From Burkholderiales bacterium (lineage in GTDB: Bacteria; Pseudomonadota; Gammaproteobacteria; Burkholderiales; Burkholderiaceae_E), in contig JAIYAG010000095.1 of the NCBI GenBank assembly GCA_027489195.1, positions 1 through 43,954 of the forward strand: a DNA stretch of 43,954 bases, given 5' to 3'. Of the stretch, positions 3,995 through 42,844 are shown piece by piece. Within the stretch, counting starts at the first letter, position 1. The number at the start of each line of letters is the position of its first letter. The notes beneath the pieces were generated by a model. The model saw only the letters and a program-made list of their open reading frames with translations, had not been told where the DNA came from and ran no database searches. The position numbers and the translations under genes are program-made.

Positions 3995-4018
3995 GTCGGC
4001 CCGGGGCTGCAGGCCGAC
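3995..4018. terminator. Weak GC hairpin between convergent genes
   Basis: GTCGGCC (3995-4001) pairs with GGCCGAC (4012-4018) around a 10-nt loop. It lies between the ggt-like stop and the ATPase stop. There is no T-tract. Confidence 0.25.
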
Positions 4019-4036
4019 CAAGCCAGCGCCCTCGAG

Positions 4037-5230: not shown

Positions 5231-5332
5231 GGGCCTCTCGTTTATAGCGAGTTTCGCAATCTTATCCTCTGACTGTAAGAACGCAAAGCTCTGTATAAAC
5301 ACCATCGGCGCCACAAGACCCCGCCGGGCGCC

Positions 5333-9988: not shown

Positions 9989-10060
9989 GGCAATGTTTGC
10001 TAAAGCACATAAAGTTCCGTATTCTCGGGCCGCACGACAGACCCCACCGCGGAGACATCC

Positions 10061-11029: not shown

Positions 11030-12291
11030 GCGCGACCCCGAGCCCGGCAGCGGCGCACCTGCCGACCGAGCCCCTGCGCCCCGATGCCACCGGCCCGCTG
11101 CAGGGCATCCGGGTGGTGGACCTGTCGCGCCTCGTGGCCGGCAACATGCTCACGCTGCAGCTCGGCGACTTCGGCGCCGACGTCATCAAGGTCGAGGCGG
11201 CGGGGTCCGGCGACACGCTGCGCGAATGGCGCGAGGTCCATGCAGACTTCCCCGAAGGCTTCGACGGCTGGTGGCGCACCTATGCGCGCAACAAGCGCAG
11301 CCTGGCGCTCGACCTGCGCGACGCCGAGGCGATGGGCTGGCTGCGCCGCCTGATCGACACCGCGCAGGTGCTGGTCGAGAGCTTCCGGCCCGGCACGCTC
11401 GAGGCGATGGGTCTGGGGCCCGAGGTCCTGCTGGAGCGCAATCCGCGTCTGGTGGTGGTGCGGCTGTCCGGCTGGGGGCAGAGCGGCCCGTACCGCGAAC
11501 TGCCCGGGTTCGGCAGCCTCATCGAGGGCTTCAGCGGCTTCGCGCACAAGCACCGCAGCGCGAGCGGCGCGCCGCAGCTGCCGAACCTGGCGATGGCCGA
11601 CATGATCACCGGCCTCACCGGCGCCTTCGCCACCCTGGCCGCGCTGCGCGAGGTCGAGGTGAATGGGGCCCGCGGTCAGGTGGTCGACCTGTCGCTGCTG
11701 GAACCGATGCTGGCGGTCATGGGCCCCGACGTGAGCACCTTCGCGGCCACCGGCACGGATGCCGAGCCCGGCCGCAAGATCGCGTCGCCGCGCGGCAGCT
11801 ACCGCTGCAGCGACGGCCTGTGGGTGTCGATGAGCGGCTCGACCGACGTGATGGCGCGCCGCGTGTTCGAGGCCATCGGCCAGGCCGCGCTGTTCGACGA
11901 CCCGCGCTTCGCCACCAATGCCGCGCGGCTCGAGCACGACGACGCGCTCGACGCGATGGTGGCGGGCTTCATCGCCGGCCTCACGCAGGACGCGTGCCTC
12001 GCGCTGTTCCGCCGCCACGGCGTGACCGTCGGCCCCATCTACGCGCCGCCGCAGCTCCTCGCCGACCCGCATATCGCGCAGCGCGGCGTGTACGTGCGCC
12101 TCGACGCCGGCGACGGCGCCGAGCCGACCGTGATGCATCAGGTCGTGCCGCGTCTGCTCGGCACGCCGGGCAGCATCCGGCGCACCGCGCCGTCACGCGG
12201 CGAGCACACGTTCGCGCTGCTGCAGGAGCTCGGAGCCACGCCCGCCGAGTGCGCCGAGCTGCAGCGCCGGGGGGGCATCGAATGCCCATGA
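11026..12291 (+). CDS. CaiB/BaiF family (family III) CoA-transferase
   Basis: GPLQGIRVVDLSRLVAGNMLTLQLGDFGADVIKVE is the typical N-terminus of this family. The start ATG overlaps the Bug stop (ATGA). Confidence 0.9.
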   Translation: MSATPSPAAAHLPTEPLRPDATGPLQGIRVVDLSRLVAGNMLTLQLGDFGADVIKVEAAGSGDTLREWREVHADFPEGFDGWWRTYARNKRSLALDLRDAEAMGWLRRLIDTAQVLVESFRPGTLEAMGLGPEVLLERNPRLVVVRLSGWGQSGPYRELPGFGSLIEGFSGFAHKHRSASGAPQLPNLAMADMITGLTGAFATLAALREVEVNGARGQVVDLSLLEPMLAVMGPDVSTFAATGTDAEPGRKIASPRGSYRCSDGLWVSMSGSTDVMARRVFEAIGQAALFDDPRFATNAARLEHDDALDAMVAGFIAGLTQDACLALFRRHGVTVGPIYAPPQLLADPHIAQRGVYVRLDAGDGAEPTVMHQVVPRLLGTPGSIRRTAPSRGEHTFALLQELGATPAECAELQRRGGIECP

Positions 12292-13133
12292 AGTCGCTGC
12301 GCTCGCTCCTCTTCCTGCCGGCCATCGCGCCGAGGCTGCTGGCCCGGGCGGCCGAGCGCGGCGCCGACGCGCTGGTGGTGGATCTGGAGGACTCCGTCCC
12401 CCCGGACCGCAAGGCCGAGGCCCGTCCGATGGCGCGCGCCGCCGTCCGGTCCCTCGCCGAGGGCGGGGCGTCCGTGGTGCTGCGGGTCAACGCCGATCCC
12501 GCCCTCTGGCGGCAGGACCTGCTCGAGATGCCGGTGCACGCGCTGGCCGCCGTCATGCTGCCGAAGGTGGAGACGCTGCAGCAGGTCGAGGTCTTCGCCG
12601 AGGCGCTGGCCTCGGTCGCCCGCGCCGACGGTCACCGCCCGCCGCCGATCGCCGCACTGCTCGAGACGCCGCGCGGCGTGCTGGCCGCGGCGCAGGTGGC
12701 GCAGCACCCCGCGCTGTGCGCCCTCGGCTTCGGCGCGGAGGACTACGCGGCTGCCCTCGGCGTGCCGCCCGAGCCCGCGGCGCTGGTCTGGCCCGCCTCG
12801 CAGGTGCTCACCTGCGCACACGCCTGGGGGCTGCAGTGCTGGGGGCTGGCAGCGAGCATCGCCGAGGTCGGCGACCTGGAGGCCTTCGGGCGCTCCGTGC
12901 GGGCCGCGCGCGCGATGGGCTTCACCGGCTCGGTCTGCATCCATCCGCGTCAGGTCGATGTCGTCAACCGCGGCTTCTCGCCCGACGCCGACGAGCTCGC
13001 CTGGGCGGCACGGGTCGTCGCCGCCGACGACGCGGCGCGGGCGGCCGGCCTCGGCGCGGTGCTGCTGGACGGCCGCATGATCGACCTGCCGATCGTCGAG
13101 CGCGCGCGCCGGTGGCTGGCCGCGGGCGGCTGA
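12282..13133 (+). CDS. HpcH/HpaI aldolase / citrate lyase beta-subunit-like CoA ester lyase (CitE family)
   Basis: RSLLFLPAIAPRLLARAAERGADALVVDLEDSV..., MLPKVE..., ALLETPRGV and GAEDYAA are CitE/malyl-CoA-lyase-like motifs. In-frame ATGs lie at 12282 and 12288; the latter overlaps the CoA-transferase stop as ATGA. Confidence 0.88.
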   Translation: MPMKSLRSLLFLPAIAPRLLARAAERGADALVVDLEDSVPPDRKAEARPMARAAVRSLAEGGASVVLRVNADPALWRQDLLEMPVHALAAVMLPKVETLQQVEVFAEALASVARADGHRPPPIAALLETPRGVLAAAQVAQHPALCALGFGAEDYAAALGVPPEPAALVWPASQVLTCAHAWGLQCWGLAASIAEVGDLEAFGRSVRAARAMGFTGSVCIHPRQVDVVNRGFSPDADELAWAARVVAADDAARAAGLGAVLLDGRMIDLPIVERARRWLAAGG

Positions 13134-13144
13134 GCGGCCTCGCG

Positions 13145-14443
13145 GTGCCGGGTCCCGCGACCGGTCCGGTCCCCGATCCCGACCCCGATCCCGACGGGCA
13201 CTGGGTGACGGTCTGGGCCGCATCGGCGCAGGCCGCCTACCCGGTGGGGTCGCCGATAGCCCAGCCGCCGCTCGATGCCGCGCTGCCCGACACCACGCGC
13301 GGTCTGGCGGACCAGTCGCTGCGCATGCTGCTGCGGCCCGGCCTCTGGTCGAGCCGCGTCCGGCTGCGGCTGAGCCACGTGTTCGGCGACCGGCCCCTGG
13401 TGCTGCGCGACCTCGGCGTGGCCCTGCACCTCGGCGGCGGCGCGCTGGTGCCGGGCAGCCGTGTCGGACTGCCCGACCAGGTCGTCGCCGCCGGACAGTC
13501 GACCTGGACCCCGCCGGTCGTCCTGCCCTGGCTGCGGAGCGCCGACGCGACGCTGATGCAGGGGCGCGCACTGGCCGTCAGCGCCCGGGTGGACGGCGCC
13601 AGCGGTCCGGTCACCTGGCATGCGAAGTCGATGGCCACGTCCTACCTGTCCGCCCCGGGCGATCGCGACGCCGCCGGACGGGACGACGCCTTCGGCTTTC
13701 CCCACGGCACCACGTCCACCTTCGTCGTCGACGCGTTCGATGCCTGGCTGCCCCGATCGGCGAGCGCCTTCGTCGCCTTCGGTGACTCGCTCACCGACGG
13801 CACCGGCACCACGCTCAACGGCCACGACCGATGGACCGACGTGCTGCAGCGCGAGGCCTGGCGCTCGGGCCGCGGCGACCTGGCCATCGTCAACGCCGGC
13901 ATCGGCGGCAACCAGGTGATCGGCCCGCCGCCTGGCAGCGGCTCGTGGCGGGGCGGGCCGTGCGCGGTGGCGCGCGTGGCGCGCGACGTGCTCGGCCTGT
14001 CGGGCGTGCGCACCGTGTTCTGGCTGCAGGGCATCAACGACTTCAGCGACAACGGGGGTGCGGAAGCGGTCGCCGTCGCCGAGGCCGTGGCCGCGACGGT
14101 CGGTCGGCTGCTGGGGCAGGGGCTCCGGGTGATCGGCGCCACCCTGCCGTCGGCGCTGGGCGCGACCCGACCGGGCCACGGCGGCGCGCTGCAGGATGCG
14201 AGGCGCCGCGCCTTCAACGAGGTGGTGCGCCGGGGCGGGCTCTTCGACGAGTTCGTCGACCTCGACCGCTGCCTGAGCGATGCGCGGACCGGGCGGCTGC
14301 ACACCGACTTCGACGGGGACGACACCCTGGGCGGGCCGGGCGACGGCATCCACCCCAACCGCGCGGGGCATGCAGCGATGGCGCGCTGCATCGGCGCGAC
14401 GTGCCTCGCTCCGGCCGCGCCCGGTGATCCGCGCGGGCCCTGA
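13145..14443 (+). CDS. SGNH/GDSL hydrolase family protein with an N-terminal beta-sandwich-like domain; no signal peptide detectable
   Basis: Block I is FVAFGDSLTDG, block II-III is VNAGIGGNQV and block V is GDGIHPNRAGH. The only plausible start after the upstream stop is the GTG at 13145, giving VPGPATGPVPDPDPDPDGHWVTVW. Confidence 0.78.
   Translation: MPGPATGPVPDPDPDPDGHWVTVWAASAQAAYPVGSPIAQPPLDAALPDTTRGLADQSLRMLLRPGLWSSRVRLRLSHVFGDRPLVLRDLGVALHLGGGALVPGSRVGLPDQVVAAGQSTWTPPVVLPWLRSADATLMQGRALAVSARVDGASGPVTWHAKSMATSYLSAPGDRDAAGRDDAFGFPHGTTSTFVVDAFDAWLPRSASAFVAFGDSLTDGTGTTLNGHDRWTDVLQREAWRSGRGDLAIVNAGIGGNQVIGPPPGSGSWRGGPCAVARVARDVLGLSGVRTVFWLQGINDFSDNGGAEAVAVAEAVAATVGRLLGQGLRVIGATLPSALGATRPGHGGALQDARRRAFNEVVRRGGLFDEFVDLDRCLSDARTGRLHTDFDGDDTLGGPGDGIHPNRAGHAAMARCIGATCLAPAAPGDPRGP
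13172..13195 (+). repeat. Tandem hexanucleotide repeat (CCCGAY)x4 encoding (Pro-Asp)4
   Basis: The sequence cccgat cccgac cccgat cccgac lies in frame near the 5' end of the SGNH hydrolase gene. Confidence 0.9.
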
Positions 14444-14481
14444 CCTGCGGCGGCCGCGGCGCGTGCCGCCGCCGCCGCAGG
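14444..14481 (+). terminator. GC-rich stem-loop immediately after the SGNH hydrolase stop
   Basis: A perfect 11-bp stem pairs CCTGCGGCGGC (14444-14454) with GCCGCCGCAGG (14471-14481) around a 16-nt loop. It starts 1 nt after the TGA and has no T-run. Confidence 0.4.
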
Positions 14482-14652
14482 GCCTTGCGCCAAGCCCGAC
14501 ACAATCGCCCCGCACAGCCCGGGCTTTGGGCCGCGACCCGTGCCGCGGCGGCTAGACTCGACCGCTCGCGCGGACCTCGTCTCGAACCCCTCGGGATCGC
14601 GTCCGCGTGGCGCTGCGAGCAGCACCTCCCGTCGCGCACAGCGCTGGCCTCC

Positions 14653-16128
14653 ATGACCGTGCCCCGCCGCTCGAACATCGTGGTGCTGCTGATCGACGAC
14701 CAGTTGATCATCGGCGAGAAGGTGCGCGAGCTGCTCGAGCACGACCCCCACATCGCGTTCCAGCACTGTGCGGACGCCGGCGACGCGATCGAGACGGCCT
14801 CGCGGCTGCAGCCCACGGTCATCCTGCAGGACCTGATGATGCCCGGCGTCGACGGGCTCGAGCTGCTGCGCCAGCTCAAGCGCGCCGACGCAACGCGGGA
14901 GGTGCCGGTCGTCGTGCTGTCGACCAAGGAGGAGCCGGCGATCAAGGCCGAGGCCTTCCGGCTCGGTGCCAACGACTACCTCGTCAAGCTGCCGAGCGCG
15001 GTGGAACTGATCGCGCGGATCCGCTACCACTCCGAGGCCTACCGCAATGCCGCGATGCGTCGTCTGGCCATGCAGGCGCTGATGGAGAGTCGGGAGGAAC
15101 TGCGCAAGAGCCACGAGCAGATCGCCCGACAGGCGGGCGAACTCGAGCTGCGCAACAGCTTCATCAAGAAGACCTTCGGCCGGTACCTGTCGGACGAGGT
15201 GGTGAGCGAACTGCTCGACTCCCCCGAGGGCCTGCGCCTCGGCGGCGAGAGCCGCGTGGTCACGATCATGATGGCCGACCTGCGCGACTTCACGTCCACC
15301 AGCGACCGGCTGCCGGCCACCCAGGTGGTGCAGATGCTCAATGCCTATCTCGGCGCCATGACGCGGGTCATCGCCGAGCATCACGGCACGATCGACGAGT
15401 TCATCGGGGACGCCATCCTGGCCATCTTCGGGGCGCCGCTGTCCCGGGACGACGATGCCCGTCGGGCCGCACGATGCGCGCTGGCCATGCACCAGGCGCT
15501 CGTGGCGGTGAACGAACGCGGTGCGCGCGACGGCCTGCCGATGCTGGAGATGGGCATCGCGCTGCACACCGGCGAGGTGGTGGTCGGCAACATCGGATCC
15601 GACATCCGCGCGAAGTACGGCGTGGTGGGCAGCAACGTCAACCTGACCGCTCGCATCGAGTCGCAGAGTGTCGGCGGCCAGGTCCTGGTGTCCGAAGCGG
15701 CCCGGGCGGCCATCGGCCCGGAGGCCCGGACGGGCCGCGAGCTGCGCTTCCAGGCCAAGGGCTTCCAGCGCGAGCTCGTGGCCTGGGAACTGACGGGGCT
15801 CGACGGCGAGGGCGGCCTGAGCCGTCCGGCCGGCGCCGGTCATCCGATGGCCATGCGCCTGCTCGAGCCGCCGCTGCCGCTGCAGTTCTGGCAGGCGCGT
15901 GGCAAGCGCGTCGACGGGCCGCCGCAGGACGGCTTCCTGGTGCGGGCGGGCGAACAGGCTGGCGCCCTGCGCACGGCGATCGCGCCGCCACCGTTCGCCG
16001 AGCTGAGGATCCTGCTGAAGGCCGGCGCCGATGACGAAGCGCCCCGGGAAGTCTGGGCAAAGGTGGTCGACACCGAGGGCGACGAGACACGGCTGCTGTT
16101 TTCCCGGCATCTGGACGCCCGGGCGTGA
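14653..16128 (+). CDS. Response regulator: REC domain, coiled-coil linker, class III adenylate/guanylate cyclase domain and an uncharacterised C-terminal extension of about 95 aa
   Basis: The REC domain has acidic pocket LLIDDQ, phosphoacceptor VILQDLMMPGVDG, VLST and YLVKLP. The cyclase has metal Asp residues in IMMADLRDFT (D209) and FIGDAILAIFG, plus GSNVNLTARIES. ATG at 14653. Confidence 0.9.
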   Translation: MTVPRRSNIVVLLIDDQLIIGEKVRELLEHDPHIAFQHCADAGDAIETASRLQPTVILQDLMMPGVDGLELLRQLKRADATREVPVVVLSTKEEPAIKAEAFRLGANDYLVKLPSAVELIARIRYHSEAYRNAAMRRLAMQALMESREELRKSHEQIARQAGELELRNSFIKKTFGRYLSDEVVSELLDSPEGLRLGGESRVVTIMMADLRDFTSTSDRLPATQVVQMLNAYLGAMTRVIAEHHGTIDEFIGDAILAIFGAPLSRDDDARRAARCALAMHQALVAVNERGARDGLPMLEMGIALHTGEVVVGNIGSDIRAKYGVVGSNVNLTARIESQSVGGQVLVSEAARAAIGPEARTGRELRFQAKGFQRELVAWELTGLDGEGGLSRPAGAGHPMAMRLLEPPLPLQFWQARGKRVDGPPQDGFLVRAGEQAGALRTAIAPPPFAELRILLKAGADDEAPREVWAKVVDTEGDETRLLFSRHLDARA

Positions 16129-16177
16129 ACCCCTGCTCTACAGTGACGCAACGCACGATCGACGAGGACAGTCGGAC

Positions 16178-17830
16178 ATGGTGATTCGCAATCTCGGCCT
16201 CGAGAAGAAGCTGATGCTGCTGCTGAGCATCTTCTCGCTGGCCTTCTTCGCCTTCGCCTTCGTGTCCTGGCACACCATCGAGACCGTGCGCGTGAACGGT
16301 CCCCTCTACGGGTCCATCGTCGAAGGCAAGGACCTGGTCGCGGACATCCTGCCTCCGCCGGCCTACATCATCGAATCGCACCTGCTCAGCCTGCAGCTGG
16401 TCGAGGAGTCCGACGCCGCGCAGCAGGCCGTGCTGATCGAGCGCGGGAACGCCCTGCGCGTCGAGTTCGACCGGCGCCACGAGTTCTGGAAGCGTGCGCT
16501 GGCGCCCGGCACGCTGGCGGACACGATGAACGTCACCGCCTATCGGCCCGCCGTGGCGTACTTCGAGGCGCGCGAGGCGGAGCTCATTCCCGCGGTCCGG
16601 GCGCGGAACGCGGCACGTGTCCGGGCCGCCATGACGGTGCTCAACCAACGGTACGAAGAGCACCGCAGGGCGATCGACTCGGTGGTCAGGCTGACCAACG
16701 AGCGCAACCTCCAGCTCGAGCAGACGGCCGAGCGGTCGGTGAGCGACGGCCGCCGCAACCTCGTCGTGCTCGGCGGGCTGGTGCTCGCGGTGGTCGCGGT
16801 GCTGGCGTGGCTCACGCTCGTGATGGCCAACTCCCTGAGTGCGCGTCTGTCGCTCGCTGCCGGGGTCGCGTCCCGGGTGGCCGATGGGGATCTCACGGTG
16901 CGGGTGCCGGATGCCAGCGAGTCGGACGAGTCCGGGCGCCTGCTCACGGCCATCCAGGCCATGACCACCAGCCTGCATTCGCTCGTGGCGCGCGTGCGCC
17001 AGGCCTCGAACATGCTCAGCGCCTCGACGGCCGAGTTCACGAAGGCCGGCCGGCAGCAGGACCGCCACATCGGCGGCCTGCGCGACTCCGCGGTGCAGAT
17101 CGCCGGCGGCGCGCGCAGCATCTCCGAGACGAGCGCCGACCTGATGTCCACGATGGAGAGCGTCAATGCGGTGGCCGGCCAGGCCGCGCAGGTCGCCGAG
17201 GGCGGCCGGTCGCTGCTCGAAGGCATGCAGGGCGCCATGCAGCAGCTGCAGCAGGGCACCGTGTCGATCTCCACGCGCTTGGGCGCGATCCGCGAGAAGA
17301 CGTCCGACATCAGCGGCGTCGTCACCACCATCACCAAGATCGCCGATCAGACCAACCTGCTGTCCATCAACGCCGCCATCGAGGCCGAGAAGGCGGGCGA
17401 CCAGGGCCTCGGGTTCATGGTGCTCGCGCGCGAGATCCGTCGCCTGGCCGACCAGACGGCCGCTGCCACGCTCGACATCGAGCAGATGGTGCGGCACATG
17501 CAGTCGGCGGTGTCGGCCGGCGTGATGGAGATGGACGGCTTCGCGGCGCAGGTCGAGCGTGGCGTGGGCGTCACGGCACAGGTCGGCACGCAGCTGGGCC
17601 AGATCATCGGCCAGGTGAAGTCGCTGTCGGAGCGCTTCGATGCGGTGAACCACGGCATGCGCAGCCAGTCGCAGGGCGCGCGCCAGATCAGCGAAGCCAT
17701 GACGCAGCTGATGGCCGGTGCGCAGGCCGGCGCTGACGCCCTGCCCGAGTTCAATGCCTCGATCGCCGGGCTTCGGGACGCGGCCGACTCGCTGACGCAG
17801 GAGATCTCCCGCTTCAAGCTGGGGACCTGA
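16178..17830 (+). CDS. Methyl-accepting chemotaxis protein (two TM segments, helical periplasmic sensor of about 170 aa, HAMP, MA signalling domain)
   Basis: TM1 is LMLLLSIFSLAFFAFAFVSW and TM2 is LVVLGGLVLAVVAVLAWLTLV. A HAMP domain follows, and the signalling hairpin tip reads QTNLLSINAAIEAEKAGDQGLGFMVLAREIRRLADQT. It lies 49 nt downstream of the REC-cyclase. Confidence 0.92.
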   Translation: MVIRNLGLEKKLMLLLSIFSLAFFAFAFVSWHTIETVRVNGPLYGSIVEGKDLVADILPPPAYIIESHLLSLQLVEESDAAQQAVLIERGNALRVEFDRRHEFWKRALAPGTLADTMNVTAYRPAVAYFEAREAELIPAVRARNAARVRAAMTVLNQRYEEHRRAIDSVVRLTNERNLQLEQTAERSVSDGRRNLVVLGGLVLAVVAVLAWLTLVMANSLSARLSLAAGVASRVADGDLTVRVPDASESDESGRLLTAIQAMTTSLHSLVARVRQASNMLSASTAEFTKAGRQQDRHIGGLRDSAVQIAGGARSISETSADLMSTMESVNAVAGQAAQVAEGGRSLLEGMQGAMQQLQQGTVSISTRLGAIREKTSDISGVVTTITKIADQTNLLSINAAIEAEKAGDQGLGFMVLAREIRRLADQTAAATLDIEQMVRHMQSAVSAGVMEMDGFAAQVERGVGVTAQVGTQLGQIIGQVKSLSERFDAVNHGMRSQSQGARQISEAMTQLMAGAQAGADALPEFNASIAGLRDAADSLTQEISRFKLGT

Positions 17831-17831
17831 G

Positions 17832-18347
17832 TTGGTCCGGGAACACGCCGCGCCGCGCGCGCTGATGGTCGTGCTGACCGTGGCCGGGCAGCGCCATGCG
17901 CTGAATGCCGCCGGGGTCGTGGAGGTGCTGCCCTGGCTGCCCGTGGCGCCTCTGGCGCTGGCACCGCCGGCCGTCGTGGGCGTGATCGACTACCGCGGCA
18001 CCGTCGTGCCGGTGGTGGACCTGTGCCGGCTGCTGGCGGGCCGCGACGCTCGGCGATGGCTCGCGAGCCGGATGGCGGTCGTCCAGGTCGGGCCGCCGAC
18101 GCGGCACCGCCTGGTGGCGCTGCTGGCGGAGGGCTGCACGCTGACGAGACTGGACACGGCATCGGCGCAGCCGGGGCTGCACCGGCCGGATGCACCCTTC
18201 CTGGGCCCGTTGCTGAACGACGCGGATGGCCTGCTGCAGAGCATCGACCCCGAGCGGCTGCTCGGCGCCGAGATCATCGACGCATTGCTGAGCGCGCCGG
18301 CGGACCTGCCGCCGGAGCCGCTGTCGGCGCGGGCCCATGGACGCTGA
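17832..18347 (+). CDS. cheW: CheW-like coupling protein
   Basis: The CheW fold signature is VVLTVAGQRHALNAAGVVEVLPW...VVGVIDYRGTVVPVVDL. The TTG at 17832 lies 1 nt after the MCP stop; an in-frame ATG at 17865 is an alternative. Confidence 0.85.
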   Translation: MVREHAAPRALMVVLTVAGQRHALNAAGVVEVLPWLPVAPLALAPPAVVGVIDYRGTVVPVVDLCRLLAGRDARRWLASRMAVVQVGPPTRHRLVALLAEGCTLTRLDTASAQPGLHRPDAPFLGPLLNDADGLLQSIDPERLLGAEIIDALLSAPADLPPEPLSARAHGR

Positions 18348-18984
18348 GGCCTGCTGGCGCACCATCGGCGTCGGGGGTGACCGAAGCTGCCCCGAGCTGA
18401 TCCGCCTCGTGCACTGCCGCGAGTGCCCGGTGCTCGGGCAGGCCGCCGAGCGCCTGCGCGAGCGCGACGTGCCGGACGGCTACGCCGAGGCCGCGGCCCG
18501 GGCGGCGGCCTCGAAGTACGAACCCCGCCGGAACGACCCGACGCTTCTGGTGTTCCGTCTGGGCACGGAGTGGCTGGCGCTGCAGACCGCCTGCGTCGAG
18601 GAGATCGCAGCGATGCGACCGATCCATCGGGTCGCGCACCGGGGCGGGCTGGTGGCGGGCCTCGCGAACGTGCGCGGACAGCTGCTGCTGACCGTGCGGC
18701 TGGGCGAGCTGCTGGCATTGCCGCCCGCCCCCTCGCGCCGGCTGGGCGAGCCCGCCGCCCGGCTGGTCGTGATGTCGCACGGCGCGCAGACCTGGGCCTT
18801 TGCCGCCGACGAGGTCGAAGGCGTGGTCGCCCTGGCCCTGGGCGAGCAGGCGCCGCCGCCGGCCACCCTGCCCGCCGCGCTCGCGGCCGTCACCCGTGGC
18901 ACGGTGCCCTGGCGAGACCGGCGCGTCACGCTGCTGGACACGGTGCCCCTGTTCGAGCTGCTCCAGCGCGGCATGACACCGTGA
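18337..18984 (+). CDS. cheW: CheW domain protein with an N-terminal four-cysteine extension
   Basis: The N-terminus is MDAEACWRTIGVGGDRSCPELIRLVHCRECPV (C6, C18, C27, C30). The CheW domain follows: LLVFRLGTEWLALQTACVEEI...GLANVRGQLLLTVRL. It overlaps the preceding cheW by 11 nt. Confidence 0.88.
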   Translation: MDAEACWRTIGVGGDRSCPELIRLVHCRECPVLGQAAERLRERDVPDGYAEAAARAAASKYEPRRNDPTLLVFRLGTEWLALQTACVEEIAAMRPIHRVAHRGGLVAGLANVRGQLLLTVRLGELLALPPAPSRRLGEPAARLVVMSHGAQTWAFAADEVEGVVALALGEQAPPPATLPAALAAVTRGTVPWRDRRVTLLDTVPLFELLQRGMTP

Positions 18985-21587
18985 GCGCGCTCGACGCCCT
19001 GTTCCGCGACGAGGTCGAGCAGCGGGCACCGGTGCTGCGCGACGGCCTGCGGCGCTGCGAACACTCGGCGCCCGACGGCGAGATGCTGTTCGCCGCGCAG
19101 GCGCTGAAGGGCGCGGCCCGGGTGATGGGGGTACGCAAGGCCGAGCGGCTGGCCGACGCCCTGGAGCTCCTGCTGGGGGCCTCGGAGACCGCGGCCGGGC
19201 CGATGGGCGCCGCCCAGCTGCAGGCCTGTGCGGATGCGCTCGAGCTGATCGAGGCCATCGCCCAGTCGGGGGCCGCCCGGGCCGACGAGGTGGCCACGGA
19301 CGCGCAGCTCGCCGATCTGCTGGATCGCCTGGCCGTGCCGGCGGTGTCCGCGGCGGTGACGCGCCCGGTCCGGCAACGGGCACCGCTGACGGCCGCGACC
19401 CTCGAGCTCTTCAGGCAGGAATGCGAGCAGCATTCCAGAGTCATGGGCGAGGGCCTCCTGTCGCTGGAGCGTTCGCCCGACCAGCCCGAGCTGCTGGACC
19501 GGCTGATGAGGGCGTCGCACTCCGCCAAGGGCGCTGCGAGGGCCGTGGGCCTGGACAGCACCGTCGCCCTCGCGCATGCGGCCGAAGACCAGCTCGAGCG
19601 CGCCCGGCGCCGACAGATCCTCGTCGGCCCCGACCTCGTGGACGCGCTGCTGGCCGCGAGCGACCTGATCCAGCGCACCGGCATCGCGGTGTCGACCGGC
19701 ACCGACCTGCCGGCCGACGACGCGGTGCTGGCCTGCGCCAGCCGCATCGTGCAGGCCGGCCAGGCCTGCATGATCCATCCGACCTTCGAGTCCGGCGGCG
19801 GCGAGTCCGGCCTGGCCGACGCGGCCCCGTCATCGCGACAGGCGGTCGAGGAGGAGCGGGTCGTGCGCATCCGCGCCACGCAGCTCTCGCGGCTGGTGGC
19901 CCTGGCGGGCGAACTGGTCGTCGAGAGCAGCCGGCAAGGCCTGCTGGCGGCGGCCCAGCAGCGCATGCGTCTGCAGCAGTCCGGCATCGCGGACCTGCTG
20001 GACGAGCTGCAGCAGTCGATGGCGACCCTGCCGGGCGGTCATGCGCTGCGCAGCCGGATGGAAGCCCTGCGGCTGCGGCTGAGCGATCTGCGCCGGAGCA
20101 ACGTGGCCTGGTCGGAGGACTTCGAGCAGCACGCGCAGCGCAAGGAGGACCTCAGCCTGCGCCTGTACCGCGAGGCGCTGGACAGCCGCCTGCAGCCCCT
20201 GGCCGACGGGCTGGGCGCGTTTCCGCGGCTGGTGCGCGACATCGCCCGGCGGCTCGGCAAGCAGGCCGAGCTGACGGTCAGCGGCGAGACGCACCGCATC
20301 GACCGCGACATCCTCGAGCGCATCGAGGCGCCGCTCAACCATCTGATCCGCAACGCCCTCGACCATGGCCTGGAACGGCCCGCCCTGCGGCGTGAACGGG
20401 GCAAGCCCGAGCAGGGCCGCGTGGCGATCGATGCGCGCGTCGTCTCGGGCCTGCTGGAGATCTCGGTCAGTGACGACGGTGCCGGGATCGACATCGACAA
20501 GGTCCGTGCGCGGGTGGCCGAAAAGGGCCTCGAGACGCCCGAGGCGGCACAGGCCCTGCCGGTCGACCGGCTGCTCGACCACCTGTTCGTGTCGGGCTTC
20601 TCGACAGCGGATCAGGTGACCGAGATCTCCGGCCGCGGGGTCGGCCTCGCCGTGGTGCGCAGCGTGATGCGCGACGTCAGCGGCTCGGTCAGCCTGCACA
20701 CCCGAGCCGGTCAGGGGGTGCGCTTCGAGCTGCGGGTGCCGATCAGCCGCTCGGTGCTGCGTGCGGTCGTCGTCTCCATCGCGGGGGAGCCGCACGCCTT
20801 CGCGCTCACGCGGGTTGACCGCCTGGTGCGGCTGTCCGTCGCCGATGTGCTGACCGCGGGCAACCGGCAGTACGTCGTCCTGGACGGGCGGACCGTGTCA
20901 CTCGTCTGGGCGTCCGAACTGCTGGAGCTGGGGCCGTCCAACCCCTCGGCCCGCCAGCTCGACGTGGTCGTGGTCAGCGACTTCGGCCAGAGCGTCGGCT
21001 TCATCGTGGATGCCGTGCTGAGCGAACAGGACATGGTGCTGCAGGCGCTCGATCCCCGCCTGGGTCGGGTACCCGACATCAGCGCCGCAGCCGTGCTGCC
21101 CGACGGTCGACCGGTGCTGGTGCTCGATGCCGAGGACATGGTGCGCTCGGTGCTGCGCACCCCGGAGGCGCAGACGTCGCAGCACGATGCGCGCAGCCCC
21201 GTGCCGACGCGACGGGCGCTGCGCGTGCTGGTGGCGGACGACACGGCGACGATCCGGGAGATGGAGCGCGAGCTGCTGGTGCGCGCGGGCTACGAGGTCG
21301 TCACCGCGGCCGACGGCATGGAGGCGTGGCAACAGCTGCACAGCACGGACGTCGATCTCGTGATGACCGACGTCGACATGCCGCGCCTGGACGGCATCGG
21401 GCTGATCCGCTCGATCCGCCAGGACGCGCGGCTGCAGCGCCTGCCGGTGATCGTGCTGTCGTACCGGGCCTCGGCGAACGACCGTCAGCAGGGACTGGAT
21501 GCCGGGGCCTCGGCGTACATGACGAAGGCCGACTACGACGACACCCATCTGCTGGACACCGTGGCGCGGCTCATCGGCCGCCCCTGA
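18981..21587 (+). CDS. cheA: CheA-like hybrid histidine kinase: two Hpt domains, dimerisation region, HATPase, CheW-like P5 domain and C-terminal REC (WspE-like architecture)
   Basis: The GTG at 18981 overlaps the upstream stop (GTGA). Hpt-1 is degenerate, reading AAQALKGAARVMG with Gln40 where His is expected. Hpt-2 is canonical, RASHSAKGAARAVG (His180). The ATPase boxes are HLIRNALDHG, DDGAGID and GRGVGLAVV. The P5 domain reads VVSIAGEPHAFALTRVDRL and the REC reads RVLVADD...LVMTDVDMPRLDG. Confidence 0.92.
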   Translation: MSALDALFRDEVEQRAPVLRDGLRRCEHSAPDGEMLFAAQALKGAARVMGVRKAERLADALELLLGASETAAGPMGAAQLQACADALELIEAIAQSGAARADEVATDAQLADLLDRLAVPAVSAAVTRPVRQRAPLTAATLELFRQECEQHSRVMGEGLLSLERSPDQPELLDRLMRASHSAKGAARAVGLDSTVALAHAAEDQLERARRRQILVGPDLVDALLAASDLIQRTGIAVSTGTDLPADDAVLACASRIVQAGQACMIHPTFESGGGESGLADAAPSSRQAVEEERVVRIRATQLSRLVALAGELVVESSRQGLLAAAQQRMRLQQSGIADLLDELQQSMATLPGGHALRSRMEALRLRLSDLRRSNVAWSEDFEQHAQRKEDLSLRLYREALDSRLQPLADGLGAFPRLVRDIARRLGKQAELTVSGETHRIDRDILERIEAPLNHLIRNALDHGLERPALRRERGKPEQGRVAIDARVVSGLLEISVSDDGAGIDIDKVRARVAEKGLETPEAAQALPVDRLLDHLFVSGFSTADQVTEISGRGVGLAVVRSVMRDVSGSVSLHTRAGQGVRFELRVPISRSVLRAVVVSIAGEPHAFALTRVDRLVRLSVADVLTAGNRQYVVLDGRTVSLVWASELLELGPSNPSARQLDVVVVSDFGQSVGFIVDAVLSEQDMVLQALDPRLGRVPDISAAAVLPDGRPVLVLDAEDMVRSVLRTPEAQTSQHDARSPVPTRRALRVLVADDTATIREMERELLVRAGYEVVTAADGMEAWQQLHSTDVDLVMTDVDMPRLDGIGLIRSIRQDARLQRLPVIVLSYRASANDRQQGLDAGASAYMTKADYDDTHLLDTVARLIGRP

Positions 21588-21588
21588 C

Positions 21589-23802
21589 TCAGAGGTCGGC
21601 GTCCTTGAGCAGCAGCGTCGCGGCGATCAGGCGCTCCGACACGATGCGAGCGAGGGCACGGTGCAGCGTCGCGGCATCGGCGGGCACGTCGGTGTCGAGC
21701 TGCGCCAGGCGGTCGCCACCGAGCACGAGGACGGTGCTGTCCTGCGTGGCCGTCACCGTCGCACTGCGCTCGCGTCGCGAATAGAAGCCGACCTCGCCGA
21801 GCAGCGTCCCCGGCAGCAGCCGGTTGAGCGTGGATTCGCCCCCGGTGACCTGAGCGACCGACACCTCGAGCTGCCCGCTGACCAGCACCATGATGCTGTC
21901 GGACGCATCGCCTTCGCGCATCACCGTCTGGCCCGCGCGGAACTCGCGCCGCTCGCCGTGCCGCTGCAGGACGGCGAGCACATCGTCGTCGCCCTGGCGC
22001 GGCATCGTCCGGCGGGCGGCCGCGGACTCGGCGAGCGTGCGTTCCTCGATGGCGGCCAGCAGCGTGTCGAGATCCCCCTCGACCTGCAGACCCGACGACT
22101 GCAGGGCCGCGATCTGGCGACCGAACTGCTGCCGCAGGGGCGCCGAGAGTCCGGTCAGGACCAGTTCGACCGACTGCTCCGCGCAGCGCCGCGCGAGGAG
22201 TCCGAAGGCCTCCCAGGCCGACAGGTCGAGCCCGACGATGCGCTTCATGTCCACGATGACGATGCGGGGTGGCGTCTCGCTCTGCAGGCTCGCCTGCAGC
22301 CGGCTCAGCAGACGTCGGGTGGTGCCGAAGAACAGGAATCCGGTCAGCGAATAGATGTGGACCCGGTCGCCCAGGCCGCTCAGCACGGCGCGCTCCTGCG
22401 GGCTGCGCTCGACCCGCGCCTTGAGGTGGGCCGCGGTCGTGAAGAGGCGCACGACGTCGATGCGCGCGTAGACGACCACGAACAGCAGGCAGGCCGCCAC
22501 CGCGCCCAGCGCCAGGGCCGGCAGCACGCCCAGCGTCACCGCGACGATCGGGATCGCCAGCACGAGGGCCTTGTCGCGGTGCGGGATGCGCCGACCGAAG
22601 TCCCAGAGCGCGGCCAGCAGCAGGTCGAACCCGAGGTACCACAGCACGCCGGCCACCAGGCCACGGGGCAGGTCCGACAGCACGTCGGCGCCCAGCGTGA
22701 TGCACAGGGCGCTCATGCCGACGATCGCCAGCCCGGCCGCGACGTCCGGCATGCCGACCCGCCTGGCCAGACTCGTCATGCTGACCATGTGATAGCCGGG
22801 CAGTCCGCCGACCAGCCCGGCGGTGGCGTTGGCGACACCGAGCGTCCTGAGCGCACCGTCGAGGTCCGCTTCGCGGCCGCTCAGCTGTTCCAGGCTGATG
22901 ACGTTGAGCAGCGCGCCCAGCAGGCACAGGCCGGCGACCGCCAGCATCATCGGAACGGCGGACCACAGCGCCGGCCAGGACACGTCCTGGAGACCCACGG
23001 TGCCCGAGCTCTGCAGCAGCGAGTCGTAGGGGAACGGACCCAGCAGCCAGCCCCGCGCGCGCGCCGTGTCGAGATCCAGCCCGAAGACGCCGAGGCCGAG
23101 ATAGAACGACCCGGCCGCCAGCGCGAAGGACAGCGGCACCAGCAGGCCGTTGCTCGAGCGTCGCACGACGAACGACAGCGCCAGCCCCAGCACGCACCAG
23201 GGCAGCCACTGCGGCCAACGTGTCGCGATGTCCGAGGGTGACCGGAAGGACACGTCGGCCATCACGATCGTGAACGCCTCACGGACCAGCAGCAGGCCGC
23301 TCGCGGCGAGGAAACCCGCGGTGACCTGGCGCGGCAGGTAGCGGACGACGAACGAGAGCTTCAGGTGACCGATGGCGTAGGCCGTCACGCCGGCCAGCAC
23401 GGTCGACAGGCCGATCATCACCACCGCGGTGGCGAACGCCGCCTCCGCGGCGAGGCCGGCGTCCGCGATCATCGCTCCGGCTGCGGTCGCCAGCAGGACG
23501 GCGGTCACGTCCTGGGGCTGGACGATGACGGCCCGACAGCTCTTCGAGACGACGGCGACCATCGCCATGATCAAGGCGCCGACCAGCACCAGCCCGATGC
23601 CGAGACTCAGGGAGGGCGCGAGCGCACCCGAGAAGACCAGCGTCGCCTTGGAGACGGTGAAGATGACCGTCATCGTCCCGATGATCAGTCCCGCCAGCAG
23701 CGACCTCACCCCCAAGGCCAGCTGGCCGACAGCACCCTGCAACGACGACTCCCCCGTCCGGCGCTCGTGCTTAGGCACGATCAGTGCGCGCGACGGTATC
23801 AC
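21589..23802 (-). CDS. SulP/SLC26-family anion transporter fused to STAS and a C-terminal cyclic-nucleotide-binding (CNB) domain
   Basis: A polytopic membrane domain is followed by STAS (VHIYSLTGFLFFGTTRRLL...IVIVDMKRIVGLDLSA). The CNB domain reads REFRAGQTVMREGDASDSIMVLVSGQLEV...LLGEVGFYSRRERSATVTA, a phosphate-binding cassette with Glu and Arg. The stop lies 1 nt from the cheA stop. Confidence 0.88.
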   Translation of the reverse strand: MIPSRALIVPKHERRTGESSLQGAVGQLALGVRSLLAGLIIGTMTVIFTVSKATLVFSGALAPSLSLGIGLVLVGALIMAMVAVVSKSCRAVIVQPQDVTAVLLATAAGAMIADAGLAAEAAFATAVVMIGLSTVLAGVTAYAIGHLKLSFVVRYLPRQVTAGFLAASGLLLVREAFTIVMADVSFRSPSDIATRWPQWLPWCVLGLALSFVVRRSSNGLLVPLSFALAAGSFYLGLGVFGLDLDTARARGWLLGPFPYDSLLQSSGTVGLQDVSWPALWSAVPMMLAVAGLCLLGALLNVISLEQLSGREADLDGALRTLGVANATAGLVGGLPGYHMVSMTSLARRVGMPDVAAGLAIVGMSALCITLGADVLSDLPRGLVAGVLWYLGFDLLLAALWDFGRRIPHRDKALVLAIPIVAVTLGVLPALALGAVAACLLFVVVYARIDVVRLFTTAAHLKARVERSPQERAVLSGLGDRVHIYSLTGFLFFGTTRRLLSRLQASLQSETPPRIVIVDMKRIVGLDLSAWEAFGLLARRCAEQSVELVLTGLSAPLRQQFGRQIAALQSSGLQVEGDLDTLLAAIEERTLAESAAARRTMPRQGDDDVLAVLQRHGERREFRAGQTVMREGDASDSIMVLVSGQLEVSVAQVTGGESTLNRLLPGTLLGEVGFYSRRERSATVTATQDSTVLVLGGDRLAQLDTDVPADAATLHRALARIVSERLIAATLLLKDADL

Positions 23803-23824
23803 ACCGACTGGCTGCCCTCGGCCG

Positions 23825-26149
23825 TCACTCGCCGGTCATGCCGACGTCGGTCGAATACGACGCGGCACTCGGCTGATCCGTCAGGGGGCGCTTGGCGGCG
23901 GCACGAGAGACCCAGTGCGTCAGGTCACCGGTCAGTCCGCGCACGCGGTCCGACAGGTGCAGCGCCATGTTCTTCAGCAGCAGCGCGGCCACGTCGGGGT
24001 GATCCCGCAGCAGCTGGTCGAACGCGGTCGTCGGCAGGAAGCAGGCGGTGACATCGGATTCCGCGACCGCTTCCGCGGACCGGGTCTCGTGGCTCAGCAC
24101 GGCGATCTCGCCGATCGTCACGCCGGCCGCGAACGAGGCGAGGCGCCGCGAGCTTCCCGGAAGCCGCAGGCCCACCTCGCCCCGCGTCACGACGTACAGG
24201 CCGTCGCCGGGATCACCCAATCGGAAGATCACCGTGTCGCGCGGGACGTGCAGCACCTGCATCGCGGCCTCGACCACCGCACGGCTGCTCGGCGTCAGGC
24301 CGCGCATGAGCGAGGTCTCCGCGAGCGGGATCGCCTCGTCCGAACGGACCTGCAGTCCCAGCCGCTCGATCAGCCTGTCCTCCGCGTGCTCCAGGGCCCG
24401 GTCGACGTCGTCGGAGAAGTGCAGCGGGTGGGCGCTGCCGGGGTCGACCATCGCTTCCAGCAGCTGTCGCCGACTGTCGTCCACGGGCCATTCCGCGAAC
24501 ACCAGCCGCCGTCCGCGTCGTGCCCAGTCGTCCGCCACTTCGGTCAGGATGCGCGCGGCCGTGATGTCGATGTCCTGAACCTGGCGCAGGTCGAGGATGG
24601 CCGTGCCGACCGTGTCCGGAAGCTGCTGCAGCCGGCTCTGCAGGGCATCGGCCGTGCCGAAGAACAGCGAGCCCTCGAGTTCGAAGAGCGCGATCCGTCG
24701 CCCTTCGCGGCGCAACGTGTCGCGCACCTGCGCCGGACGCACCTTGAGGGATCCCCGGGATTCGCCGGTCGACTGGTGGCGCACCACGTCGCGCATGTTG
24801 GCGCGCACGAACAGCAGCACCGCGCAGGAGGCGCCGATCAGGACCGCCGCGCTCAGGCCCCAGATCAGCGCGCTCAGCGCCACGGCCACCGTGACGGCCC
24901 AGTTGCCCACCAGCGCACGGGCCTCGCCTCGGGACGGGTCGGCGTGACCCTGCCTCAGGCGCAGCAGGCCCTTGGGGGCGCGCAGCAGGGCGGGCGCCAC
25001 CATCTGGGCGCCCTGCAGGACCAGCAGGCCGCCGAGGGCGCTTTCCGGAAGGACCCCCAGCCACTGCTGCCCCGCCACCAGCACGAGCAGCATCGCCAGC
25101 GCATAGAACAGCGCCACGTTCCGGACCTCCGGCTGCGGCGGAACCAGTGCGAGGGTGCGTGCGGCCGAGGGCGACGCGGCATGCCCGCCGCACAGCGCCG
25201 TCGCGATGTTCGCCACCCCCTGCGCCACGAGTTCCCGGTCGGCGCTTCGCCGCAGCCTCAGGCGGCCGTCGATGATGGACGTGGTGATCAGCGTGTCCAT
25301 GCTGCACAGCAAGGCCAGCGTGACCGCATACACCGCCAGCAGGGTGCCGGTCTTGAAGTCCACGTGCTCGACGACGCCGCTCACCGCCTGGATCAGCAGA
25401 CCCGCCTCGAACGTCGGCAGCTGCGGCACCCCCAGGGTACGGCCCCAGACCGCGACGCCGCCGTGGCTCAGGAGCACCTCGTGCAGCGCGGTGGCGGCGA
25501 TCATGCCCAGCAGCACCGGAGGCACCCGCGGCACGTGGCGGGCCACCAGCCAGCAGGTGGCGAGGGCACATGTGCCCACGGCTGCGGCCCCCCAGTCGGG
25601 GACCAGGCCGCCGGCCAGCAGCGAGGTGCCGAAGCGGTGGCCGAGCATCACGGGAAGCGCGGTGATCAGCAGCAGCAGGCCGATGCCGCCGGTCAGGCCG
25701 AGCCGAACCGGGTACGGGGTGAACTTGACCAGGTTGCCCAGACCCAGCCATCCGAACAGGCATTGCAGCAGGCCGGCGCCGACCAGGGCCAGCGCGATGC
25801 TGACCAGCACCTGCAGGACGCCCAGGTCGCCCTCGGCGACCGGGCTGTCGACGAGATTCGCCACCAGGCCCGCCGTCAGCAGTGCCAGCGACGAGCGCGG
25901 CCCGCTGGCCAGTCGCCCGCCGCCCAGCACATGGGCCACCGTGTTGGCCACCACCGCGCCCAGGATGGCCAGCGCCATCGCCGTGGGCCCGAACGCCAGA
26001 CCCAGCGGCGCCATGGCCATCAGCCCGTAGGCCGCGTTCTCGGGGACATGGGCCAGGGCCGCCGACACGGTCACGGCCGCGCGGGACGCCCAGCCGCGAG
26101 CCTGATCCAGACGGGGCGGCCGAGCCGGCACGTCGACCGATCCGCTCAT
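23825..26149 (-). CDS. SulP/SLC26-family anion transporter fused to STAS and a C-terminal cyclic-nucleotide-binding domain (paralogue)
   Basis: The SulP core contains AAYGLMAMAPLGL...GPRSSLALLTAGLV and related segments. STAS reads IALFELEGSLFFGTADAL...AILDLRQVQDIDITAA. The CNB domain reads LHVPRDTVIFRLGDPGDGLYVVTRGEVGL...TIGEIAVLSHETRSAEAVA. The start ATG overlaps the cyclase stop (ATGA, 26146-26149). Confidence 0.9.
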   Translation of the reverse strand: MSGSVDVPARPPRLDQARGWASRAAVTVSAALAHVPENAAYGLMAMAPLGLAFGPTAMALAILGAVVANTVAHVLGGGRLASGPRSSLALLTAGLVANLVDSPVAEGDLGVLQVLVSIALALVGAGLLQCLFGWLGLGNLVKFTPYPVRLGLTGGIGLLLLITALPVMLGHRFGTSLLAGGLVPDWGAAAVGTCALATCWLVARHVPRVPPVLLGMIAATALHEVLLSHGGVAVWGRTLGVPQLPTFEAGLLIQAVSGVVEHVDFKTGTLLAVYAVTLALLCSMDTLITTSIIDGRLRLRRSADRELVAQGVANIATALCGGHAASPSAARTLALVPPQPEVRNVALFYALAMLLVLVAGQQWLGVLPESALGGLLVLQGAQMVAPALLRAPKGLLRLRQGHADPSRGEARALVGNWAVTVAVALSALIWGLSAAVLIGASCAVLLFVRANMRDVVRHQSTGESRGSLKVRPAQVRDTLRREGRRIALFELEGSLFFGTADALQSRLQQLPDTVGTAILDLRQVQDIDITAARILTEVADDWARRGRRLVFAEWPVDDSRRQLLEAMVDPGSAHPLHFSDDVDRALEHAEDRLIERLGLQVRSDEAIPLAETSLMRGLTPSSRAVVEAAMQVLHVPRDTVIFRLGDPGDGLYVVTRGEVGLRLPGSSRRLASFAAGVTIGEIAVLSHETRSAEAVAESDVTACFLPTTAFDQLLRDHPDVAALLLKNMALHLSDRVRGLTGDLTHWVSRAAAKRPLTDQPSAASYSTDVGMTGE

Positions 26150-38575: not shown

Positions 38576-38611
38576 CGCCTTGCTCCGCTCGTCGTCGAGC
38601 GAAAACATGCG

Positions 38612-42824: not shown

Positions 42825-42844
42825 TCAATCTGGCGGAGGGCCCC

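Follow-up and report, generated by a model that had tools for sequence, protein, structure and literature searches.

The DNA analysed here, referred to as the window, is a complete contig of 43,954 bp with a G+C content of about 72%, from a Burkholderiales bacterium (contig JAIYAG010000095.1, assembly GCA_027489195.1). It carries a chemosensory gene cluster whose response regulator is predicted to be a nucleotidyl cyclase. Gene content was assessed within this contig. For gene calling, a log-likelihood model of codon usage was trained on the most clear-cut open reading frames (ORFs), the raw ORF lists being useless at 72% G+C, and 36 genes were obtained. At positions 14653 to 21587 on the forward strand, five co-directional and tightly packed genes were found, encoding a receiver (REC)-cyclase regulator, a methyl-accepting chemotaxis protein (MCP), two CheW couplers and a CheA kinase with a fused REC domain. 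The original prediction for this DNA had delimited these five genes and assigned their domains, and both its coordinates and its domain calls were reproduced by the codon-usage caller and Pfam. The features of the cluster are as follows.

14480-14652, forward strand: upstream leader and putative operon promoter region, from conservation with the related locus L091
14653-16128, forward strand: response regulator of 491 amino acids (Pfam Response_reg, 2.6e-21, and Guanylate_cyc, 3.8e-24)
16178-17830, forward strand: WspA-like MCP of 550 amino acids (Pfam HAMP and MCPsignal)
17832 (TTG start) or 17865 (ATG start) to 18347, forward strand: WspB-like coupler, CheW1 (Pfam CheW, 2.4e-18)
18337-18984, forward strand: WspD-like coupler, CheW2 (Pfam CheW, 1.2e-22), with an N-terminal four-cysteine motif
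18981-21587, forward strand: WspE-like hybrid CheA of 868 amino acids (Pfam two histidine phosphotransfer (Hpt) domains, HATPase_c, CheW and Response_reg)

The regulator and MCP genes are separated by 49 nucleotides containing a GAGGA ribosome-binding site, CheW1 and CheW2 overlap by 11 nucleotides and CheW2 and CheA by four, and the gap 5' of the regulator gene measures 209 nucleotides. A promoter and terminator scan of positions 13000-24000, uninformative at 72% G+C, gave no sigma-70-like site, no terminator-like site between the five genes on the forward strand and only two weak terminator-like matches, both on the reverse strand. The short gaps and overlaps, the longer upstream gap and the lack of an internal terminator therefore support a single operon. 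About 165 nucleotides 5' of the regulator start codon are approximately 88% identical to the corresponding stretch of L091, even though the upstream gene differs (a GDSL lipase gene here, an EamA gene in L091). Conservation despite this difference is consistent with a promoter or leader of the module's own. The pathway genes and their neighbours are under purifying selection: against L091, the ratio of nonsynonymous to synonymous substitution rates (dN/dS) was 0.13-0.42 for all eight genes tested (the five pathway genes, two transporter genes and a CHASE2 cyclase gene), these values being noisy with a dS of only about 0.1.

Wsp is a textbook chemosensory pathway that controls biofilm formation through cyclic di-GMP (c-di-GMP). 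The five genes probably encode a pathway of this family, of the chemosensory class with alternative cellular functions (ACF), whose output enzyme would make a cyclic mononucleotide (cNMP) instead of c-di-GMP. The regulator is composed of a REC domain (residues ~8-125), a stalk helix (~126-167), an FGRY transducer followed by a class III catalytic domain (together ~168-372) and a predicted PilZ-like beta-barrel (~401-491). In a PDB search with residues 1-220, two structures of WspR ranked first (3bre at 3e-46 and 3i5a at 3.5e-43), with PleD next at 4e-16, some 30 orders of magnitude worse. The REC domain is 57% identical to that of Pseudomonas aeruginosa WspR, and residues 8-218 share 45% identity with WspR of Azoarcus. 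These matches support the regulator being a WspR derivative, with a receiver specifically of the WspR type. The phospho-acceptor pocket, which the original prediction had described as intact, is complete (D15, D16, D60, S90 and K112), and its residues are invariant or nearly so in the family. The proposed replacement of the REC-GGDEF architecture of WspR by REC plus a class III cyclase was likewise borne out, with a Pfam Guanylate_cyc match behind a WspR-like receiver and stalk.

The catalytic domain resembles that of Cya2 from Synechocystis. Its top PDB match was an engineered fusion (6fht, 2.3e-53) whose cyclase module is the E488K variant of Cya2, and its closest natural match was Cya2 itself (2w01, 2e-52, 52% identity). 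Cya2 is an experimentally established guanylate cyclase, and the E488K substitution turns it into an adenylate cyclase (PMC5995499). The domain is entered through the transducer element TFGRYLSD, starting around residue 168. The regulator has both metal-binding Asp residues (D209 and D253) and the transition-state Asn and Arg (N330 and R334), none of which varies in the family. The specificity pair, E249 and G323, aligns with the Glu and Gly of Cya2, E249 corresponding to E488, and 6fht has Lys at this first position. In about 85 relatives, the whole set of catalytic and specificity residues is invariant or nearly so, the Glu being kept in all but one. Because the domain is of the Cya2 type with the Glu/Gly pair, cGMP is the more likely product than cAMP. 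The direct cAMP or cGMP output of the pathway, which the original prediction had proposed, is a prediction here as well.

The alternative that fares best keeps the pathway and makes its product cAMP, or a mixture of cAMP and cGMP. Pfam and the source annotations label the family as adenylate cyclase, the cNMP-binding domains encoded next to the cluster carry a CAP-like R-S-A cassette that is common in cAMP receptors, and the Gly at the second specificity position imposes little selectivity. Against these points stand the 52% identity to a guanylate cyclase and the near-universal specificity Glu, a residue that has to change to Lys for adenylate cyclase activity. We regard a cAMP or mixed product as unlikely.

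The last 90 or so residues of the regulator are conserved across the family, and Pfam gave no match to them, nor anything meaningful at E≤10 for four family members. An AlphaFold model of this C-terminal domain, built from an alignment of 19 sequences, has six strands at a mean predicted local distance difference test (pLDDT) value of 83. The top Foldseek matches of the model in the PDB were PilZ domains (4xrn, BcsA, Alg44, YcgR and MapZ), marginal at an E-value of 1e-3 and a template modelling (TM) score of 0.5-0.6. The c-di-GMP-binding motifs RxxxR and (D/N)xSxxG were absent from the window regulator and were found in two and one of the 19 family members, respectively. The third domain is thus described as PilZ-like from the model, and binding of c-di-GMP is not claimed.

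A reference operon for the remaining four proteins was located by a tblastn search with the window CheA against annotated plasmids and chromids. The best annotated match was on pAZKH of Azoarcus sp. KH32C, where the genes run MCP, CheW, CheR, CheW, hybrid kinase/regulator, CheB and diguanylate cyclase, which is the wspABCDEFR layout. The best Azoarcus match of each window protein was its expected Wsp counterpart (BLASTP).

MCP against Azoarcus WspA: 38% identity, 5e-73
CheW1 against Azoarcus WspB: 40% identity, 5e-25
CheW2 against Azoarcus WspD: 41% identity, 2e-44
CheA against Azoarcus WspE: 40% identity over residues 139-866, 1e-148

The Wsp architecture that had been proposed for the cluster (WspA, WspB, WspD and WspE) is borne out by this one-to-one correspondence and by the name WspE that JGI gives to close homologues of the CheA, at 83% and 69% identity. 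The MCP has transmembrane segments at residues ~10-30 and ~192-220 enclosing a periplasmic domain of about 160 amino acids, followed by a HAMP domain. Its cytoplasmic hairpin has its tip at D408 with 20+20 heptads (class 40H) and ends in a coiled coil without a C-terminal tether. It is 66% identical to the MCP of a seven-gene cluster from Thermoanaerobaculia, described below. The 40H receptor length and the KEGG-style WspE naming by JGI are consistent with an ACF class.

N-terminal to its CheW domain, CheW2 carries a four-cysteine motif, CWRTIGVGGDRSCPELIRLVHCREC (18337-18420), whose pattern CWxxIGxxGDRSCPEL...HCRxC is shared with Azoarcus WspD. In the looser form CWxxIGxxGDxSC-x8-HCRxC it also occurs at L089 (6354-7007), and the motif is kept in both five-gene and seven-gene cyclase-linked clusters (L001, L004, L086, L087 and L088). 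It looks like a metal or Fe-S site, and no description of it was found in the literature examined. The CheA consists of a pseudo-Hpt domain (residues 1 to ~120), an Hpt domain with its His (~141-226), a dimerisation region, HATPase and CheW-like domains and a REC domain (749-850). In the pseudo-Hpt domain (18981-19340) the phosphorylatable His is replaced by Gln within the motif FAAQALKGAARV (F-A-A-Q-A-L-K-G). This domain is present in all cyclase-linked CheAs examined, from five-gene and seven-gene clusters, and is lacking in Azoarcus WspE.

No CheR or CheB accompanies the cluster. Pfam found neither a CheR nor a CheB_methylest domain in 35 of the 36 called genes, the one left unscanned being a truncated ORF at 3-323. 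A six-frame tblastn search of the contig (E≤10), for which CheR and CheB of related Wsp-type operons served as queries (two sequences of each), returned matches to REC domains only. The statement of the original prediction that the 44-kb window encodes no methyltransferase (CheR/WspC) and no methylesterase (CheB/WspF) thus held in both searches.

The window regulator belongs to a large family whose members are conserved from end to end. Among named relatives, the nearest comes from a metagenome-assembled genome (MAG) of Rubrivivax sp., at about 60% identity, and the TctC/Bug genes and 72% G+C of the window would suit a member of the Burkholderiales. Gene contexts were collected by contig look-ups and from 80 loci of a species-representative genome collection, and were scored by tblastn with the window proteins and with CheR and CheB of L004. 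Two forms of the module emerged. The five-gene form without CheR and CheB, with the regulator gene first, was found in the window, on the contig of homologue P0002 and in L001, L088 and L087, and partially in L085 and L006. The seven-gene form runs MCP, CheW, CheR, CheW, CheA-REC, CheB and regulator, and was found in L004, L086, L012, L013, L017, L019, L029 and L030. The seven-gene and truncated contexts are distributed as follows.

Thermoanaerobaculia, L004 and L012, with L024 divergently arranged: seven-gene form
Metagenome contig L086: seven-gene form
Desulfobacteraceae and other Thermodesulfobacteriota, L019 and L029, and L013 with the MCP gene relocated: seven-gene form
Candidatus Moduliflexus, L017: seven-gene form
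Thioploca, L030: seven-gene form
Holophagales L002 and L005, Thermoanaerobaculia L014 and Moduliflexus L022: contig-truncated CheA-CheB-regulator ends
Desulfonema magnum (strain 4be13, complete genome) and other Desulfobacterales (L016, L008 and L010) and two cyanobacterial MAGs (L025 and L031): MCP-CheB-regulator or CheB-regulator ends, with MCP-CheB-regulator in L016

The association was also approached from the kinase side. CheA homologues at 94% (L091), 62% (L092, a Sinobacteraceae MAG, assembly GCA_018883185.1) and 51% identity (L093) all lie in five-gene modules with the regulator first. Orthologous che clusters lacking the cyclase gene would have refuted the original prediction; each of these three clusters carries the REC-cyclase, and the prediction stands.

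In a quick neighbour-joining tree of the regulators, the five-gene clade was monophyletic. Its sister group was a clade of seven-gene clusters, and more seven-gene clusters branched around it. The parsimonious reading of this quick tree, which is not a proof, is that the clade of the window lost CheB and a CheR fused to tetratricopeptide repeats (CheR-TPR) and moved the regulator gene to the front, the absence of CheR and CheB being a derived state. In the more distant half of the regulator family, position 90 is Thr in place of Ser, and nearly all of these members are not che-linked. The 802-residue REC-REC-REC-cyclase P0035 was not found to be encoded on the window contig by tblastn.

Several seven-gene clusters have an extra single-domain receiver gene beside the REC-cyclase gene (L017 8651-9893, L019 11171-11638 and L029 9869-10435), and in L017 a small cNMP-binding ORF lies there as well. 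These are hints of additional phosphate sinks or of feedback in the ancestral form. Regulators that are not che-linked were seen in Halieaceae and related gammaproteobacteria (L063, L068, L073, L075, L076, L080-L082 and L084). Next to each of these regulators, a divergent cNMP-binding protein (about 215 amino acids) and, downstream, a receiver domain are encoded; the three genes form a conserved cNMP module that is separate from the Wsp-linked one.

Linkage of the regulator to Wsp-type cores was observed in at least 20 loci, in several phyla and in two gene orders, which bears on whether the REC-cyclase could instead be an independent unit, incidentally adjacent to the che genes and phosphorylated by another kinase. 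The 209-nucleotide gap with its conserved leader, the many family members without che neighbours and a multi-PAS hybrid histidine kinase with a C-terminal REC domain, encoded on the forward strand at 33110-35824, 11.5 kb 3' of the CheA gene, would suit such a unit. Besides the recurrent linkage, the specifically WspR-like receiver and the mere 49 nucleotides, free of a terminator, between the regulator and MCP genes argue against it, and the PAS kinase is not among the called genes of L001, L092 and L093. An independent regulator is considered very unlikely.

The same comparisons make it highly improbable that the five genes are a decaying, non-working remnant of the seven-gene system. Two adaptation genes are indeed missing, and the first Hpt domain of the CheA has no His. 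Yet the pseudo-Hpt domain also occurs in the seven-gene form and therefore does not indicate decay, no catalytic or phospho-acceptor residue has been lost, dN/dS lies at 0.13-0.42, and the five-gene form has been kept over 51-94% protein identity in at least eight contigs, one of them from a Sinobacteraceae genome. An ordinary flagellar or pilus chemotaxis system is barely credible: MCP, CheW and CheA are present, but neither CheY nor CheZ nor any flagellar or pilus component is encoded in the window, the hybrid kinase is of the WspE type, the sole stand-alone regulator has an enzymatic output and the best annotated homologues are in wsp-type operons.

Two transporter genes with cNMP-binding domains follow the CheA gene on the opposite strand.

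21589-23709, reverse strand: SulP-STAS-cNMP transporter (Pfam Sulfate_transp, STAS and cNMP_binding, 2.1e-18), convergent with the CheA gene, with its stop 1 nucleotide from the CheA stop
23825-26074, reverse strand: second SulP-STAS-cNMP transporter, a paralogue of the first (Pfam cNMP_binding, 7e-17), kept in L091

The phosphate-binding cassettes of both are intact, with the Gly-Glu and the Arg kept: GEVGFYSRRERSAT in the first transporter (core GEVGF..RERSAT) and GEIAVLSHETRSAE in the second (core GEIAV..HETRSAE). These cNMP-binding domains are candidate receivers of the cyclase product. SulP-STAS-cNMP genes adjoin the five-gene module in L091, on the P0002 contig and in L001 and L088, in varying positions and orientations. 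Across the whole regulator family, a hidden Markov model built from these domains detected flanking cNMP-binding ORFs at 37 of about 86 loci, in many cases as the immediate neighbour, against a background put at below 10% by a rough estimate from typical gene counts. Nothing relevant was found in the literature on the characterisation of SulP/STAS/cNMP-binding transporters. In L001, from a relative at 74% identity, a glutaminase-cNMP fusion gene (16995-18851) lies convergent with the CheA gene at the position held here by the SulP-cNMP gene, and its product is a candidate cNMP-regulated effector.

By analogy with Wsp, the pathway would work as follows. The WspA-like receptor would form an array with the WspB- and WspD-like couplers and control the WspE-like CheA. 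The kinase would autophosphorylate on the His of its second Hpt domain, and the phosphoryl group would then be transferred to D60 in the WspR-like receiver domain of the regulator, the REC domain fused to CheA probably being a competing phosphate sink. Once phosphorylated, the receiver would activate the dimeric Cya2-type domain by way of the stalk helix and the FGRY transducer, and that domain would most likely convert GTP to cGMP. The nucleotide would be read by the cNMP-binding domains of the adjacent SulP/STAS anion transporters and would change transport, not motility. Unless CheR and CheB act in trans, such a pathway would have no methylation-based adaptation.

The sequences show gene content, homologies, conserved catalytic and phospho-acceptor residues, synteny and purifying selection, and from these we infer phosphotransfer, cyclase activity, the identity of the product, the stimulus and the effect on the transporters. 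Several observations weigh against this cGMP-producing Wsp pathway. The specificity Glu points to GTP by analogy with Cya2 alone, its partner being Gly and not the Cys or Ser of animal guanylate cyclases, and the R-S-A-T and R-S-A-E cassettes of the transporters cannot tell cAMP from cGMP. About 40% of the closest regulator homologues, and nearly all members of the distant half of the family, are not beside che genes, and the many members without che neighbours imply that this type of regulator can work with other kinases. SulP-cNMP genes are missing beside the module in L092 and L093, which makes the transporter link lineage-specific. CheR and CheB may be supplied in trans from elsewhere in the genome. 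The methylation motif [ASTG][ASTG]xx[EQ][EQ]xx[ASTG][ASTG] has no match in the window MCP; this was discarded as a sign of lost adaptation, the motif being equally missing from most MCPs of relatives that keep CheR and CheB (two of these MCPs have one match each), so that its absence is uninformative on adaptation.

A wider reading is put forward tentatively and with some doubt. The REC-guanylate cyclase-PilZ-like regulators would define a third Wsp class that converts an envelope or surface signal, perceived by receptors of the WspA type, into cGMP and has been transferred horizontally among four or five phyla or more. In the lineage of the window, which resembles Burkholderiales, this class would have become a non-adapting switch without CheR and CheB, gating SulP transporters directly via their cGMP-binding domains.

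The genes next to the transporters include a second cyclase.

26146-27963, reverse strand: class III cyclase with a CHASE2 sensor (Pfam CHASE2, 1.3e-44, and Guanylate_cyc, 1.5e-9), kept in L091
27999-28580, reverse strand: FecR-domain protein (Pfam FecR, 1.1e-9), its stop overlapping the start of the CHASE2 cyclase gene by 4 nucleotides, the pair being kept in L091

The CHASE2 cyclase shares the domain architecture of Cya2, but its catalytic domain is divergent. Aligned by eye to Rv1625c, it has Asp at the Lys position and Ala at the Asp position of the specificity sites. It was considered as a Cya2 orthologue and rejected on these Asp/Ala sites and on a catalytic match to Cya2 of 4e-8, compared with 2e-52 for the REC-cyclase. 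This cyclase might also feed the same cNMP pool, as a second input.

Further genes of the window were noted. Upstream, between an EamA gene and the regulator leader, a block at 9458-14443 encodes MarR, a TctC/Bug receptor, a family III CoA-transferase, an HpcH/HpaI aldolase-lyase and the GDSL lipase. It has no counterpart in L091, where EamA lies directly 5' of the regulator gene, and in L085 an AhpC/Redoxin gene is situated between EamA and the regulator; the block resembles an inserted carboxylate-utilisation cassette. A 425-residue AAA_16/AAA_22 ATPase (4037-5314, reverse strand) lies in the 2-kb interval of lowest G+C content (0.68; stretch 4001-6000). Scored per codon for codon usage, it ranks with the lowest of the called genes, and it may be horizontally acquired. 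Beside the PAS kinase gene, at 35853-38608 on the reverse strand, lie genes for a CorA Mg2+ channel and for a third transporter of the SulP-STAS type, which has no cNMP-binding domain. At 39450-42656 (reverse strand) a protein of 1068 residues combines a lactonase/YncE-like beta-propeller with a di-haem cytochrome c peroxidase (MauG-like) region, a type also present in L091. Finally, genes for a VapB antitoxin and a PIN-domain VapC toxin, the stop codon of one overlapping the start codon of the other, are paired at 42818-43437 on the forward strand.

Few cases of cGMP signalling in bacteria are known. A conserved module that joins a sensor and a kinase to a probable guanylate cyclase, with cNMP-binding effectors encoded alongside, would give this signalling a testable pathway from input to output, and if a third class gating SulP transporters were true, cGMP would be in wide use as a second messenger in bacteria, with its sensory input and its effector both defined. 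The derivative without CheR and CheB would offer a natural experiment on the contribution of methylation in a chemosensory array that does not serve motility. For Wsp itself, a third type of output is indicated, in which GGDEF has been swapped for a Cya2-type cyclase on a WspR receiver and stalk. Acidobacteriota, Desulfobacterota, Moduliflexus and large sulfur bacteria (Thioploca) all have representatives with the seven-gene Wsp layout.

In P. aeruginosa, the Chp (Pil-Chp) chemosensory pathway also raises a cyclic mononucleotide, through CyaB, by a link that is indirect and dependent on type IV pili. The two systems are alike in this outcome and differ in that the cyclase of the window is fused to the receiver of the pathway itself. 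Cya2 of Synechocystis PCC 6803 (2w01) has the FGRY element, the Glu/Gly pair and a C-terminal extension in common with the regulator, the extension of Cya2 (residues 638-756) being needed for its activity (PMC5995499). Unlike the regulator, Cya2 is controlled by an extracellular CHASE2 domain and not by a receiver, and it has no che linkage.

Among published chemosensory clusters, Munoz-Martinez et al. (2012) listed a "mononucleotidyl cyclase" among the output domains of ACF cheR-TPR clusters, with one entry in the supplement, from delta proteobacterium NaphS2 (PMC3447774). The REC-CHD regulator of this cheR-TPR cluster (Table S2) probably belongs to the same seven-gene type. The entry is a table row, with no analysis of WspR ancestry, specificity, distribution, the derivative without CheR and CheB or the cNMP neighbours. 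No functional or evolutionary study of the Wsp-cyclase variant was found in open-access full text.

Published surveys give WspR or WspH as the only Wsp outputs (PMC8552884). Pfam found neither GGDEF nor HisKA in the window regulator, which is hence of neither the R-system nor the H-system output type. A GenBank search by Kessler et al. (2021) used conserved synteny from wspA to wspF as its criterion (PMC8552884). The order in the window is regulator-A-B-D-E, without WspC and WspF, and the complete wspA-wspF synteny is present in the sister and deeper relatives L004, L086, L012, L019 and L030. Because the locus departs from Wsp as strictly defined on two counts, wspC/wspF synteny and a GGDEF or WspH output, it was filed as a new Wsp variant and not as a member of the R- or H-system.

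The Burkholderia WspH or H-system (PMC8552884) resembles the variant in joining a Wsp core to a terminal regulator without GGDEF that is independent of c-di-GMP. It differs in that WspH is a hybrid histidine kinase/response regulator feeding a further phosphorelay and in that wspC and wspF are kept, whereas the regulator described here is predicted to be a second-messenger synthase. The Pseudomonas Wsp pathway (wspABCDEFR, the R-system, PMC8552884) is closest in its parts: the receptor, the two couplers, the hybrid CheA-REC, the four-cysteine motif of WspD and a 40H receptor without a pentapeptide tether are alike, and relatives of the window module share its seven-gene order with CheB and a CheR of 434 amino acids, the size of a CheR-TPR fusion. 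In contrast to the Pseudomonas system, the GGDEF domain of WspR is replaced by the Cya2-type cyclase and the PilZ-like domain, the CheA has an extra pseudo-Hpt domain, and the clade of the window lacks wspC and wspF and has its regulator gene at the front. Wsp has been reported to be exclusive to beta- and gammaproteobacteria (PMC8552884); unlike Wsp as reported there, the cyclase variant also occurs outside these two groups.

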